In this document: positions 44,195 to 51,148 of the stretch, in pieces
Numbering within the stretch: the stretch's first letter is position 1
Layout of the letters: every line of letters starts with the position of its first letter
Program-made: the position numbers and the translations under genes
DNA from: Gemmatimonadota bacterium
GTDB taxonomy: Bacteria > Gemmatimonadota > Gemmatimonadetes > Palauibacterales > Palauibacteraceae
Assembly (NCBI GenBank): GCA_046758745.1
Contig: JBHIAV010000006.1
Location: forward strand, 33,608-97,607
Direction: 5' to 3'
Length of the DNA: 64,000 bases
The notes under the pieces: model-generated
What the model was told of the DNA's origin: nothing
Databases searched by the model: none
What the model saw: only the letters and a program-made list of their open reading frames with translations

Positions 44195-44872
44195 TCACCC
44201 CAGCAGCCAGAAGGCGCCCACACCGCCGGCCACCGCCGCGAGCCCGCCAAGCAGGATCCCGTACGCCCGGTCGCCGGCGGCCGCTACCAGTCGCTCCGCA
44301 ATCAGCCCGGCCAGCGCGGCAAACGTGAGCATGCCGGCCACGGTGCCCATCGCGAAGCCGGAGAGGTAGACGACGGAAGCGGCGAGGGACGGCAGGGCCA
44401 GCGCCGGAAGCACCCCCACCAGGTGCGAGCTCCCCGCCACCCCGTGAAGAACACCGATGACCAGGGCGGCGTGCTCATGCGCGTGGGCCGCCGGATGTGA
44501 GTGCGAACCGGCGCCGCCGCGCAGATGGATGTGGAGGTGCGTGTGTCGGTGACCATCGTGCTCGTGCTCGTGGGCGTGCAGGCGACCGGATAGCGCACGC
44601 CGGAGGGCCCACAGGCCGATCCCTACGAGGGCGAGCCCCACCAGTCGCTCGCCGTGCCCGGCGACCAGCTCCAACGGGATGACCCGGCGAAACAGGAGGA
44701 CGAGCGCGCCGACGGCGAGCGCACCCAACGCGTGGCCGAGACCCCACCGCAGGCCGGTGCGCCACGCGCGGGGGCCGGCCTCCGCCGCCAGAGGGGCCAC
44801 CGCGGCCAGATGGTCCGGCCCGGCGAGCACGTGAATCATCCCGGCGGCGAGTCCGGCAAGGACGGGTAGCAA
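44195..44872 (-). CDS. High-affinity nickel/cobalt transporter (UreH/NicO-like)
   Basis: HVLAGPDHLAAV, WGLGH, His-rich loop HAHEHEHDGHRHTHLHIH, GVLHGVAG. Confidence 0.88.
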   Translation of the reverse strand: MLPVLAGLAAGMIHVLAGPDHLAAVAPLAAEAGPRAWRTGLRWGLGHALGALAVGALVLLFRRVIPLELVAGHGERLVGLALVGIGLWALRRALSGRLHAHEHEHDGHRHTHLHIHLRGGAGSHSHPAAHAHEHAALVIGVLHGVAGSSHLVGVLPALALPSLAASVVYLSGFAMGTVAGMLTFAALAGLIAERLVAAAGDRAYGILLGGLAAVAGGVGAFWLLG

Positions 44873-45053: not shown

Positions 45054-45082
45054 TTGCCGACCCCCGGAGCTCCGTCTAGCTT
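45054..45082 (+). promoter_or_regulatory. Putative sigma-70 promoter for the structured RNA/sORF
   Basis: TTGCCG-17 nt-TAGCTT; the first hairpin begins about 9 nt downstream. Confidence 0.55.
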
Positions 45083-45088
45083 TCTGGT

Positions 45089-45300
45089 ACGCCGGGGCAC
45101 AGGGAGGGTGGATGTCCCTGCCGCGGCGCCGGTGCTCGGCCCGATCCGTTCACTCAGCAAAGGAGGTGATCCAGTGTCCGAAGGGAGTAGATTCGAGTCT
45201 GACTCGACACGGGCAAGCGGTCGCCTTGGAGTGATTCGCTAGGGGAGGTGTTCTTCCCGCGCCGGCCTCTCGCCGAGGCACGGCGCGTGCCTGGCCGGCG
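45089..45300 (+). ncRNA. Putative structured small RNA/mRNA with a 16-nt complement to the 16S rRNA 3' end
   Basis: 5' stems 45091-45100/45132-45140 and 45100-45105/45115-45120; AAAGGAGGTGATCCAG at 45159-45174; 3' stems 45242-45258 and 45260-45300. Confidence 0.5.
45174..45242 (+). CDS. Putative 22-aa micropeptide MSEGSRFESDSTRASGRLGVIR
   Basis: GTG 7 nt after the GGAGG core of an extended SD; stop TAG 45240-45242 runs directly into a hairpin. Confidence 0.5.
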   Translation: MSEGSRFESDSTRASGRLGVIR

Positions 45301-45473
45301 GAGCCGTGAGAGGCGCCGCGTCGAGTTGGGCCGAAGAGTACCCCGCGGCCGCAGCGCTCTCCCCGAGCCTGCGGCCGTCTGTTTTCCCAATCGCCCGCAC
45401 CCATCCATCCGGCCGGTGCCCGGGGAAGCGATTCCCGTTGAACGCGTTTCACGTCAGGACGGAGCGAACGGAT

Positions 45474-46691
45474 GTGGAGCTCTTCGTAGCGCGGCAGCCG
45501 ATCTTCGATCGGCAGGACCGGCTCTTCGGGTACGAGCTGTTGTATCGCGGCAGCCGAGAGGCCTCGGTTGCAGGTGGTGCCCCCCCGCACCAGATGACGT
45601 GCGAGGTGATCGCCAACGCCTTTCTGGAGCTAGGGATCGACCGCGTGGCGCACGGCAGGCCGGCCTTCATCAACGTGACCCGGCAGATGCTCCTCGACGG
45701 CCATCTCTCCCTGCTACCCGCAGATTCTATCGGCTTCGAGATCCCGGCCCGGTTGGCCCATGACCCGGAAATCGCGGTGGCCTGCCGGGAGCTGGCGGAG
45801 GGGGGGTACCGCCTTGTCCTCGACGGCTTCACGGAGAGCGCACGAGTCGGCTCCCTTCTCGAGCTCTGCGAGCTGACCAAGATCGACGTGCTGGGACGCG
45901 ATCCCGGCGAGCTGGCCCGGACGATCGAGGTCCTCTCTCCCTCAGCCGCTCGGGCGGTCGCCGTCCGGGTGCAGAGTCGCGAGTTGCGGAGGAGGAGCCT
46001 CGAGGTCGGATTCGACCTCTTCCAGGGCAACTTCTTCAGGTCGCCCGATCTCCTGGTCGCGCGGAGAATGTCGGTGGAGCTCGCCGAGGTCGTTCGCCTG
46101 CACAACCTGCTTCTCGACGAAACGGAGGAGGAGGATCTCGTGCGGGTACTCCGCTCGGCTCCCGGGCTGGCGTACCGGCTGCTCCGCATGGCGAGCACCT
46201 CATGGCCGGGCGGCACGAGCATCGGGTCGATCGAAGGGGCGCTCCGGCTCGTGGGGCGCGATCTGCTTCGTCGGTGGCTCTCGATCCTTCTCGTCTCATC
46301 GGCTGCCGGAACCGGAGGAGTGGGAGAGCAGCTGGCCGCCGAGGCCCTGTTTCGCGCCAGATTCCTGGAGCTCCTGGCCGGCGAAGACGGTGCATCGGCA
46401 GGTTCCTTCTACCTCACCGGCCTGGTCTCCGGGCTCGACGCCCTTCTCGGCATGCCGATGAGCGACGTGCTTTCCCTCATCGACCTACCCGAGGAGGTGC
46501 GGGAGGCGCTGGGAGCGCGAGCCGGACGGCTCGGCGAGATGCTGGACCTCGTCGAGGCGTACGAGGGGGCCGACTGGGCTCGAGTGACCAATGCGGCGAC
46601 CCCGCTGGGGATCGGGCAAGAGGGCCTCTCCGACCGGTACCGCGAGGCGCTCGTTTGGTCCCGGGAGAGGCTCCTGGCGGGGGGCGGCTGA
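45474..46691 (+). CDS. EAL-HDOD domain protein (YuxH/PdeH-like), EAL probably degenerate
   Basis: FVARQPIFD, YELLYR, AFIN, FQGNFF; HDOD LAYRLLR...SI..AL...G, RARFLE, GLVSGLDALL. Confidence 0.88.
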   Translation: MELFVARQPIFDRQDRLFGYELLYRGSREASVAGGAPPHQMTCEVIANAFLELGIDRVAHGRPAFINVTRQMLLDGHLSLLPADSIGFEIPARLAHDPEIAVACRELAEGGYRLVLDGFTESARVGSLLELCELTKIDVLGRDPGELARTIEVLSPSAARAVAVRVQSRELRRRSLEVGFDLFQGNFFRSPDLLVARRMSVELAEVVRLHNLLLDETEEEDLVRVLRSAPGLAYRLLRMASTSWPGGTSIGSIEGALRLVGRDLLRRWLSILLVSSAAGTGGVGEQLAAEALFRARFLELLAGEDGASAGSFYLTGLVSGLDALLGMPMSDVLSLIDLPEEVREALGARAGRLGEMLDLVEAYEGADWARVTNAATPLGIGQEGLSDRYREALVWSRERLLAGGG

Positions 46692-48862: not shown

Positions 48863-50149
48863 TCAGCCTACCCGTCGCGTCCGGCGGCGCAGGAAATCCA
48901 TCAGAATGTACTGCCCGAGGCTCATCGTCGAGGTGAAGTACGCCTTGCCGCGGCAGATCTCCGCCATCTTCCGGACGAAGGCGACCAGTGCGGCGTTCCG
49001 CGCCAGCATGAAGGTGTTGATCGCGATCCCCTCCCGGCGGCAGGCGGCGACCTCCGCGAAGGTGCGCTCGAGGATCCGCCGGTCCAGCCCCATCGAGTTC
49101 TTGTAGATCCGACCGCCCGGCAGCGAGATCGCGCTCGGCTTCCCGTCCGTGATCATGATGATCTGCCGCATCTCCTTCCGTTCCTGGCGGAGCAGCCGGC
49201 GGGCGAGCCGGAGGCCCTCGGCCGTGTTCGTATGGTAGGGTCCCACCTGAGCACGGACGAGCGTCCGGAGGGGGATCTCTTCCGCCGAATCGTGGAAGAG
49301 CACGCAGCGCAGGGTGTCGCCGGGGAACTGGGAGCGGAGGAGGTGCGCCAGCGCCAGCGCTACCTTCTTCGCCGGCGTGAAGCGGTCCTCCCCGTACAGC
49401 ACCATCGAATGGCTGCAGTCCAGCATGAGCACGGTGGCGCAGCTCGATCGGTAGGCCGCCTGATGAACCCTGAGGTCGCCGTACTCGATGTCGAGCGGAA
49501 GCCTTAGCCCGCCTCGGGTGATGGCCCGGAGGAGCGTTGCAGGAACGTCCAGGTTCAGCGTATCCCCGAACTCGTACGGCTTGGAGCTCGCCTCCGCTTC
49601 CACCCCGGTGGCCAGCTCGTTCGTCTCGTGCATGCCGGCGCTCGCCCGTCCGACCGATCCGAGGATCTCCCGCAGGGCCCGATAGCTCAGAAAGTCGAGG
49701 CCCTTCTGCGTGAGATCGAATTTGATGGAGCGCGTCGCCCCCTTGCCCACGCTCGCTGGCCCGGTGACTGGACGTGCCTCGTCCGGCACGCGCGGCGTCC
49801 CCTCCACCCTGATGTAGCCCTCCTTGACCAGACGCTCGACGATGTCGTCCAGCAGCCGGGCCAGGCTCGCCGACGTCGCTTCTGCAGCATTCCCCTCCCC
49901 TCGCAACGCCTCCAGCATCTCCGCCGTCAGCTCGCCGCCCTCGATGAGGGCTCCACGGATCGCGTCCCGCAGGGCGTCGAGCGAGTCCGCCTCGCTCGAA
50001 GGATCGAACTCATCGCGGAAGAGGTCCCCCCACGGGTCGCCGGCGAAACCGCTGTCGAGCAGGAACTGCGACAGACGGTCCAGAAGGGCCTGCACGTTCA
50101 GGGCGTCGAGCAGGCTGCCGCGGTACTGTTCGTAGCTTGTCAGTCGCAT
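48863..50149 (-). CDS. VWA domain-containing protein (partner of the chelatase-like AAA+ ATPase)
   Basis: MIDAS DCSHS, TNTAEGL, MITDGKP; YEFGD.LNLD; ATG 50149. Confidence 0.9.
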
Positions 50150-50320: not shown

Positions 50321-51148
50321 GTGCGGTTTTTCAAGTATTCGGGGGCCGGGAACGACTTCGTGATCGTCGCGGCCGAGGAGATGGCGGGGCTCGCTCCGGA
50401 TCTCCTCGCGCAACGAATCTGCGCGCGGTCGACCGGCGTCGGCGCGGACGGGCTCGTCCTGGTGCGACGGCTCGGGCCCACCCGGGTGGAGGCGCGCTTT
50501 TTCAACCCCGACGGCTCGGAGTTCTCGACGTGCGGTAACGGCACCCGCTCTGCCGCCCGCTACGCCCTGGACCTGGGCCTGGTCGACAGCGAGCCGTTCA
50601 CCGCCGTCACCGCGGCTGCCGAGATCACGGCGGCCTCCATCCCCGGGGGGATCGCGCTGGAGTACCTCATCGAGGCACGCATCGCGGGCGAGCGGCGGGT
50701 GCCCTTCGACGGCGAGCCACGGACGGGCTGGCTCGTCCACATCGGACTCCCGCACTTCGTTCTCCCGCTCCAGGCGCTCCCGGAAGGATCCATCGAAGAT
50801 GCGTGCCGCCCGATCCGCCACCACCGCGCGTTCAGCCCCGAAGGAGCCAACGTGAACCTGGTGGCGCTCCACCAACGCCGGTCCGGGGAGATCCGCACCT
50901 TCGAGCGCGGAGTGGAGGGCGAGACGCCGGCGTGCGGGAGCGGTGCCATGGCGGCGGTCCTCGCCCTCCACGTGGCCGGGCGATGCGACCGCTCCGTGGC
51001 GCTTCGCACACGAAGCTCCGAGGTCCTCGAGGTGACGCTCGGCCAGGAAGCCGTCACTTGCGGCGAGAGCGGCCGAGTCCTCATCGGCCTCGCCGGTCCG
51101 GTCCGCCGACTCTTCGAGGGCTTCCTGCCCGCGGGCGGCGCGCACTGA
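50321..51148 (+). CDS. dapF: Diaminopimelate epimerase
   Basis: KYSGAGNDF, GVGADG, FNPDGS..CGNG, PH, RTFERGVEGET.ACGSG. Confidence 0.95.
   Translation: MRFFKYSGAGNDFVIVAAEEMAGLAPDLLAQRICARSTGVGADGLVLVRRLGPTRVEARFFNPDGSEFSTCGNGTRSAARYALDLGLVDSEPFTAVTAAAEITAASIPGGIALEYLIEARIAGERRVPFDGEPRTGWLVHIGLPHFVLPLQALPEGSIEDACRPIRHHRAFSPEGANVNLVALHQRRSGEIRTFERGVEGETPACGSGAMAAVLALHVAGRCDRSVALRTRSSEVLEVTLGQEAVTCGESGRVLIGLAGPVRRLFEGFLPAGGAH

Follow-up and report, generated by a model that had tools for sequence, protein, structure and literature searches.

A candidate rre-type small mRNA with an extended Shine-Dalgarno sequence and mutually exclusive helices in Gemmatimonadetes

The 64,000-nucleotide (nt) stretch of DNA analyzed here in its entirety (hereinafter, the window) comes from a Gemmatimonadota bacterium and contains, at about 45090-45385 on the forward strand, an element that is likely, although short of certain, to be a stand-alone, single-copy small mRNA of ~296 nt of the rre type, with the mechanism outlined at the end of this text. 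The assignment rests on the results of this analysis, namely the conservation of the element, its complementarity to the 3' tail of 16S rRNA, the three helices described below and the maintenance of a short open reading frame (ORF).

The sequence AAAGGAGGTGATCCAG (45159-45174, + strand), which constitutes an extended Shine-Dalgarno (SD) sequence, is complementary in 16 of 16 positions to the 3' end of 16S rRNA, CUGGAUCACCUCCUUU. In the same genome, on a different contig (G000:C23), this end reads ...CTGCGGCTGGATCACCTCCTTTCTAG, so that the match to the usual bacterial 16S tail recognized in a preliminary description of this DNA holds for the organism's own rRNA. The SD includes a 5' extension, AAA, and a 3' extension, UGAUCCAG, and its 14-mer core occurs twice in the 3.08-Mb assembly, in the element and in the 16S gene. 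Matches with two or fewer mismatches average 0.04 in 100 dinucleotide shuffles of the window, compared to one observed match, which has no mismatches. The predicted duplex between the SD and the 16S tail is the strongest in the window, at -29.7 kcal/mol (mean for the window, -8.3; standard deviation, 3.3); the next site outside the element reaches -25.5 kcal/mol.

Comparison with relatives points to selection on this pairing. In an alignment of 26 sequences (A1), AAGGAGGTGATC is invariant, and it is retained across the class with few exceptions (GGTC in five sequences and CAGGAGG in three). The 12 nt AAGGAGGUGAUC are near-invariant in the class; here, the match is lengthened to 16 and reaches the G of the start codon, and in relatives, the complement is 17 nt long in several cases (GAAAGGAGGTGATCCAG) and 18 nt in one. 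The other families of the class retain AAGGAGGUGAUC within a complement of only 12-15 nt, mostly use UUG as the start codon, and vary in the bases that would invade helix 45. The ungapped SD variants within the family of this bacterium (GAUCUAG, GGAAGG, AAGGGAGG and GAGAGG) all result from A>G or C>U changes that retain a G.U pair; no disrupting SD substitution was seen within the family, and one-base deletions before the start codon do occur. Given that the 16S 3' end is identical in all five relatives checked, including carriers of SD variants, these substitutions keep the pairing while the 16S tail is unchanged, a pattern indicating that the pairing is under selection.

The exact 17-mer with GTG is present once per genome in 16 of 61 related genomes, with no matches to the reversed pattern used as a control; in a class-level search, 21 of 72 genomes from its own family have it, compared to none of 228 genomes from nine other families. 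With the covariance model R1, built from 26 sequences, 88 of 114 family genomes are positive for the element (56 of the 63 high-quality ones, 16 of the 20 genera). Each has one strong match, to which G003 and G200 add a far weaker one apiece. In the class sample, R1 matches 84 of 151 genomes: the element is common in the families f1 (31/35), f2 (3/3), f3 (3/4), f6 (31/32) and f8 (3/3, including the unpublished genome G083), rarer in f5 (9/28), f7 (2/10) and f4 (1/31, including the unpublished genome G074), and not detected in f9 (0/4). One R1 match in a genome of the class coincides with a locus from a Gemmatimonadales record. In the phylum sample, 55 of 151 genomes match, with none among the 19 genomes of three families outside the class. 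The element occupies a syntenic, non-rRNA position in independent assemblies, some of them single-contig genomes. Thus, homologs are conserved in related genomes, and the anti-16S match, for which the preliminary description had weighed chance against selection, is single-copy, widely shared and, in its substitutions within the family, changed in ways that keep the pairing, which argues for selection. The element probably represents a single-copy RNA family present in most families of the class Gemmatimonadetes.

The comparative sequence evidence further indicates three covariation-supported, mutually exclusive helices, one of which involves an internal anti-SD mimic; this arrangement is new for rre-type RNAs. 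The local hairpin P1 (UCGAGU-CUG-ACUCGA, 45193-45207, + strand) consists of six pairs, with 93.1% of 174 cells paired and three pairs changed on both sides. Because P1 and the long-range helix P2 use the same 3' strand of the hairpin, they are mutually exclusive. The 5' strand of P2a lies within the short ORF (45197-45208, + strand) and its partner is 45320-45331, whereas P2b pairs 45217-45225 with 45312-45319; the 3' strand of the complete helix (45312-45331, + strand) consists of GGCGCCGC (45312-45319) and GUCGAGUUGGGC (45320-45331). The 5' strand of P2b belongs to block C, GCGGUCGCCUU (45217-45227, + strand), which doubles as the anti-SD mimic. Downstream of P2 lies a hairpin resembling an intrinsic terminator (45346-45385, + strand), in which 45346-45356 pairs with 45367-45377 and is followed by UCUGUUUU. 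Across 29 family sequences, P2 and the terminator hairpin comprise 31 pairs, with 97.8% of 897 cells paired and 14 pairs changed on both sides; none of 500 shuffles scores as high, and slid registers are 28-43% paired. Taken separately, the terminator hairpin shows 96.9% pairing over 11 pairs, eight of which include changes on both sides, and in P2b, A-U is replaced by G-C in a compensatory manner in 8 of the 29 sequences. An alignment-free search indicates that P2 recurs with different sequences in other families, e.g., CAACCCGGC with GCCGGGUUG and CCGCGACCUGAC with GUCGGGUCGCGG. In this test, the helix is equalled by five or fewer of 200 shuffles in 59 of 86 unique elements; the 27 misses include a wrong GGGC anchor in at least four cases (L189, L191, L196 and L197), a contig end (L167) and interrupted helices.

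The third helix is formed by the anti-SD mimic part of block C (45219-45227, + strand), which can pair with the SD bases 45163-45171. Block C resembles the 16S tail itself (GAUCGCC vs GAUCACC), and in 88 distinct sequences from the class, 95.3% of 791 cells are paired, compared to 26-57% in slid registers. Variation in block C keeps wobble pairs and, in the family f2, an A>G change in the SD is compensated by a U>C change in block C. The minimum-energy fold of the single sequence (z = -4.0) uses this helix and leaves ~7 nt unpaired, including the first SD bases. Nevertheless, SD:block C is the least secure of the three helices because its columns are almost invariant. Covariation of the stems, which the preliminary description suggested examining, is thus found for P1, P2 and the terminator, and for SD:block C in the form of one compensated pair.

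In the alignment, the conserved features follow, in the 5' to 3' direction, the order of a variable hairpin, an invariant GCCC, an A/C-rich spacer, the extended SD with the start codon, a second codon UCN, P1, GGGC, the near-invariant block C GCG(A/G)UCGCC, the stop codon, variable hairpins, a conserved GGC(A/G)(U/C)CGC-GUCGAGU(C/U)(A/G)GG and, finally, the terminator hairpin with its U-tract. A putative promoter (45054-45082, + strand) was identified by eye as TTGCCG (45054-45059) and TAGCTT (45077-45082) separated by a 17-nt spacer, and hexamers resembling TAGCTT, CAGCTT or TAGTTT are discernible, also by eye, at similar upstream distances in relatives. Transcription would start at about 45089-45090, just ahead of the 5' leader hairpin (45090-45128, + strand), a predicted fold whose sequence varies among relatives. 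The GCCC box (45139-45142, + strand), invariant in A1, could pair with GGGC at 45211-45214; both sides are invariant, so there is no covariation signal either way. The region enclosed by P2 (45243-45311, + strand) is predicted to fold into hairpins that vary in sequence and length in relatives. The hairpins at 45091-45140, 45242-45258 and 45260-45300 noticed previously are part of the predicted fold, but the original estimate of an RNA of about 210 nt is too short, given that the conserved parts extend to the helix strand 45312-45331 and the terminator. An independently transcribed RNA of ~296 nt (about 45090-45385) appears most compatible with the layout, and the covariation-supported terminator, the single copy and the conservation in the family favor the description of the element as a self-contained unit.

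The small ORF (sORF; 45174-45242, + strand) starts with GTG (45174-45176), which overlaps the last G of the 16-mer, and ends with TAG (45240-45242) after 22 codons, as had been described; its peptide is MSEGSRFESDSTRASGRLGVIR. The same frame is listed as a 62-codon ORF from an upstream TTG at 45054, of which the sORF is the 3' part, and the GTG at 45174 is singled out as the start by its position right after the SD. In all 86 unique elements of the class, a start codon is present and the first in-frame stop falls at codon 16-24. The start codons are GTG (56), TTG (29) and ATG (1), and the stops TAG (33), TAA (30) and TGA (23); in the +1 frame, the first stop falls within codon 16-24 in just 33 of the 86. 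By our reading of these sequences, what is selected appears to be the interaction of the RNA with the ribosome and an open frame of fixed length, i.e., ribosome loading and a defined stop, rather than the peptide sequence. Selection on the peptide is not apparent because the three codon positions vary to the same extent (for positions 1/2/3, 0.56/0.54/0.53 within the family and 0.85/0.98/0.86 for other families), because relatives encode frame-shifted peptides, and because the peptide matches no protein family: a search of NCBIfam yields no matches and a search of Pfam one chance-level match, HTH_92, with an E-value of 0.18.

The most serious alternative, albeit an unlikely one, is that the element is an ordinary small-protein gene whose product is the peptide of 20-22 amino acids with the (R/W)ASDR motif, the long SD serving only for expression. 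The frame is open for 16-24 codons in all elements with all three stop codons in use, several indels between the start and the motif are multiples of three, the motif is found in the same frame in most sequences, and Hahn et al. treat rreB and rreR as clade-conserved small-protein genes in the available text of PMC5711450. However, apart from the even variability among codon positions, a frameshift across the motif alters the peptide of one genus (L010-L012) as well as those of L031, L213, L229 and L230, all of which still stop at 19-24 codons. The motif itself is encoded by block C, where changes track RNA pairing (in 8 of 29 sequences, the A>G change is accompanied by U>C on the partner strand), AUG is avoided in 85 of 86 elements, protein family databases offer nothing beyond the chance-level Pfam match, and the synthetic RreB and RreR peptides are described as unstructured in the same text. 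The over-production of a micropeptide, one of the roles previously envisaged, is likewise unlikely considering the weak starts in 85 of 86 elements, the lack of codon periodicity and the frame-shifted peptides in some genera. As a separate observation on the frames, 82 of the 86 elements have a +2-frame stop no more than 16 codons after the start, mostly at codon 1 or 4 (UCUAGU or AGUAGA), and its site (about 45186-45190 in the window, GUAGA) is as conserved as the SD flank.

The closest parallel to the element is rreB of Bradyrhizobiaceae. This mRNA measures 165 nt, encodes an sORF of 14 codons and is complementary to the 16S 3' end over 17 nt, among them the G of GTG. As far as the available text of the original report goes (Hahn et al. 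2016, RNA Biol 14:1353, PMC5711450), rreB is found in the ribosomal fraction, co-sediments with 30S subunits and is weakly translated; its stability depends on the start codon, and its over-expression causes no growth phenotype. The Rhodobacterales counterpart, rreR, has an 18-codon sORF, and RreB and RreR are dissimilar to each other. In that text, rre RNAs are reported only from alpha-proteobacteria (the alignments in its Fig. S1 may list further taxa) and their function is left open. In the literature collection that was searched, no later work on rre genes was retrieved, and the available text of the S. meliloti Ribo-seq paper (PMC10117765) contains no relevant passage.

Judging from the same partial account of rreB and rreR (PMC5711450), the features shared with the present element are a perfect 16S complement of 16-17 nt that ends on the first base of GTG; a tiny sORF (14 and 18 codons vs 22 here) with a weak GTG start; an SD of which only the 5' part is predicted to be single-stranded, the rest being included in a conserved hairpin; and one copy per genome, conserved within the clade in a context that is not conserved across orders. 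A small transcript that has a promoter and a terminator to itself, as in rreB and rreR, is predicted for the present element from its covariation-supported terminator hairpin, the promoter-like hexamers discernible by eye and the varying neighbors. The differences are the phylum (Gemmatimonadota vs alpha-proteobacteria), the length (~296 vs 165 nt), the lack of similarity beyond the SD and start motif, with unrelated peptides, the absence of coding-type constraint on the peptide in this element, and the long-range helix and anti-SD mimic that are defined here by covariation. Accordingly, R1 scores 15-35 bits on alpha-proteobacterial loci, because of the shared SD and start motif, compared to 76-85 bits on the named Gemmatimonadota loci L038 and L045. 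On the strength of these sequence features, the element is best classified as an rre-type RNA that forms a separate family in another phylum.

A scan of the whole window against Rfam identifies nothing at the gathering level. An E-value-based search detects CC2171 (RF01867) at 23.4 bits, compared to the gathering threshold of 75 (E-value of 0.027 for the region and 0.008 genome-wide). According to the part of the report that was available (10.1101/2022.01.24.477521), CC2171 is a Caulobacter small RNA (sRNA) that has been validated by northern blotting in Methylorubrum extorquens and has no function assigned. Its consensus begins with GAAAGGAGGUGAUCCAGUGUC, followed by a long-range helix that closes a multi-hairpin domain and then by a terminator, as in the present element, whereas its internal helices cannot be aligned with those of the element and the score is below gathering. 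Among 17 representative loci, the CC2171 threshold is reached by one, the alpha-proteobacterial L040 (76.7 bits). Thus, the impression that the element resembles nothing known does not hold: its motif is shared with the rre small mRNAs and with CC2171. Elsewhere in the window (44270-44340), a match to the AS1726 sRNA (25.8 bits vs a cut-off of 50, E-value of 0.26) falls inside a GC-rich ORF region and, being below the threshold, was set aside as probably due to chance.

The motif is not confined to the class. A scan of species-representative genomes for AAGGAGGTGATCCA[AGT]TG yields at least 120 loci. Among the matches listed, 108 of 120 loci precede an ORF of 27 or fewer codons, and 96 of these 108 mini-ORF loci have a crude terminator within 400 nt. 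Again among the matches listed, 28 of the 108 belong to records named Gemmatimonadota (4), Acidobacteriota (7), Planctomycetota (9), Krumholzibacteriia (2), Fibrobacterota (1), Zixibacteria (1), beta-proteobacteria (2) and gamma-proteobacteria (2), so that the 17-mer with a mini-ORF is found, within this list, in at least six further named phylum-level groups. R1 scores at most 35 bits on the loci from outside Gemmatimonadota, and from their sequences these look like separate families that share one design.

Several individual loci deserve mention in their own right. In six loci from Acidobacteriota or Acidiferrales records (L039, L057, L076, L135, L138 and L149), the 17-mer precedes a 6-codon ORF, V-R-Y-x-x-x, and a second SD-like sequence, GAGGAGG or GGGGAGG, with CTTGTG follows within ~20 nt; this suggests tandem starts in the Acidobacteriota-type loci, unlike the Gemmatimonadetes and alpha-proteobacterial types. 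In L129, from a Streptomyces sp. record, an ORF of 51 codons follows the 17-mer; its C-terminus is rich in Cys and Ser (…CCWSSILDGCQF), and by its appearance the product resembles a ribosomal-peptide precursor. In L053, from the record of a Cytophagales metagenome-assembled genome, an rreR start of the Rhodobacterales type (VSRKVLE…) sits at the extreme end of its 7.6-kb contig, which may have been mis-binned. In L059 and L093 (Aequorivita and Snuella, Flavobacteriia), the 17-mer precedes an ORF of 82-83 codons, VPLRQSEVNRMLGK…; this lineage is said to use SD sequences rarely, according to the available part of PMC7797042.

The genomic neighborhood was surveyed in 37 family genomes with flanking sequences. 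The downstream gene is dapF on the same strand in 19 genomes, a convergent VWA gene in eight, an EAL-HDOD gene in one, namely the present window, and none of these in nine. Upstream, on the opposite strand, DUF1707 and/or gcvH genes are found in 29 genomes and corA in six; the nearest Atlas cluster of the neighboring DUF1707 protein is commonest in Gemmatimonadota. An actinobacterial origin of the DNA, to which DUF1707 had initially pointed, was rejected, given that a search of the genome (87% complete) yielded no 6C RNA. In the window, about 3.5-5 kb separate the element from the VWA gene (48890-49972, minus strand) and dapF (50324-51130); the interval up to dapF includes several genes, located on both strands, so that genes appear to have been inserted here. 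Outside the family, the neighbors are unrelated (a Ser/Thr kinase, YceI, a CYTH protein). A tblastn search with the EAL-HDOD protein against 16 related loci retrieves only its own locus, and searches with DapF, VWA, CorA, GcvH, DUF1707 and EAL-HDOD against 33 loci of other families give no hits; as most of these loci span just 501 nt, this negative result is informative for L033, L045 and L152 only. The EAL-HDOD protein (45474-46691) scores below the curated Pfam cut-offs for both domains (EAL, 28.8 vs 31.3 bits; HDOD, 19.6 vs 22.9 bits) and, by sequence, may be a degenerate, non-catalytic EAL protein.

This context bears on the idea that the element is a cis-acting translated leader or attenuator of a downstream gene, the EAL-HDOD gene in the window and dapF ancestrally, which is improbable on balance. 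In favor of such a role are dapF on the same strand downstream in 19 of the 37 genomes; the locus L030 (G174:C1), where dapF starts only ~30 nt past the terminator U-tract; L196-L198, from one genus, in which the hairpin before dapF lacks a good U-run; and the general resemblance of a short ORF, alternative helices and a terminator to ribosome-dependent attenuators such as trpL, in which a short ORF likewise overlaps mutually exclusive helices upstream of a terminator. However, the element lacks a conserved regulated operon: the EAL-HDOD gene, for which the preliminary description entertained a translated leader, follows in one of the 37 genomes and is separated from the element by the conserved terminator, the next gene is convergent in eight, where the VWA gene stands between the element and dapF, ~4.9 kb with several genes on both strands precede dapF in the window, and the neighbors are unrelated outside the family. 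Moreover, P1, P2 and SD:block C (45163-45227 and 45312-45331) are separate from the terminator stem (45346-45377) and, by inspection, do not compete with it, and inspection of the peptides reveals no regulatory codon run in the sORF. To our knowledge, the extended SD is absent from attenuators. In some genera, the relationship with dapF might be closer: dapF is found downstream on the same strand also in L029, L031, L032 and most loci of that genus, and there its expression may rely on transcripts that run on from the element or on a promoter located within the element.

The remaining alternative, that the 16-mer arose by chance, is left over from decayed rRNA or reflects a mis-assembly, starts from its identity to the reverse complement of the 16S 3' end, a common primer site, and can be dismissed, given that the similarity to the rRNA gene ends after 16 bases with different flanks, that the position is syntenic and unrelated to rRNA in independent assemblies including single-contig genomes, that covariation supports an RNA structure, and that the expectation is 0.04 per window even with two mismatches allowed.

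Several observations weigh against the interpretation of the element as a stand-alone rre-type RNA with the helices described above. For SD:block C, the shuffle control is uninformative (95.0% vs 95.3%), only one pair is compensated, in three sequences, and the SD finds other partners in many of the single-sequence folds; when forced, the SD-closed and P2 folds are within a few kcal/mol of each other, which does not decide between the states. The in-frame 3-nt indels and the recurrent (R/W)ASDR motif are expected of a real small-protein gene as well. Apart from the SD and start motif, no homology to the alpha-proteobacterial rre RNAs is detectable, so that the properties of the latter can be transferred by analogy only. 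In L030, where the region about 200-290 nt after the SD was read by eye, the ~30-nt gap between the terminator and dapF offers little evident space for a promoter of its own, so that dapF could be transcribed by read-through. The hexamers and spacer of the promoter proposed in the preliminary description are present, but a consensus promoter scan called nothing at TTGCCG/TAGCTT, and a simple terminator scan did not call the hairpin 45346-45377, probably because its loop is ~10 nt long.

The mechanism proposed for this rre-type RNA combines the covariation data with the experiments on rreB. In this scheme, the ribosome-binding site, complementary to the entire single-stranded 3' tail of 16S rRNA, is followed by a weak GUG, the 22-codon frame, the structured 3' domain and the terminator. 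The A/C-rich stretch and the first SD bases, left unpaired, would provide a toehold for the 16S tail, while the remainder of the SD would be held by the internal anti-SD mimic, block C (GAUCGCC). Capture of a 30S subunit, or completion of the transcript, would then shift block C and the 3' half of P1 into the long-range helix P2, which spans ~20 base pairs, is formed with the segment just before the terminator and would bury codons 8-18. The 30S subunit would thus be bound tightly and the frame translated poorly, given that a passing ribosome would have to unwind P2, its passage ending at the conserved stop. By analogy with rreB, for which experiments demonstrated the holding of 30S subunits that the preliminary description had envisaged, strong 30S binding, weak translation and ribosome-dependent turnover would be expected of the element.

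A more speculative extension, to be regarded as a tentative and rather doubtful proposition, is that the rre-type RNAs are a multi-phylum class for which the free 16S 3' tail is the ligand, and that the Gemmatimonadetes member is a ribosome-operated switch: a vacant, correctly matured 30S subunit would invade from the 5' toehold, the freed block C and 3' strand of P1 would form the 20-base-pair P2, and elongation would be blocked with the subunit locked in place. The rre small mRNAs contain the most extreme natural SD sequences known, and the question of their function dates from 2016. The same design is now found as a single-copy gene, probably in most families of the class, in a second lineage of phylum rank. 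The three helices, mutually exclusive and open to testing, translate into a defined structural hypothesis, and the covariance model R1 could seed a new RNA family. If the switch exists, the element would be an RNA that directly senses or holds free 30S subunits and parks, protects or counts idle subunits or tests the maturation of their 16S 3' end, with translation of the frame acting as the reset.

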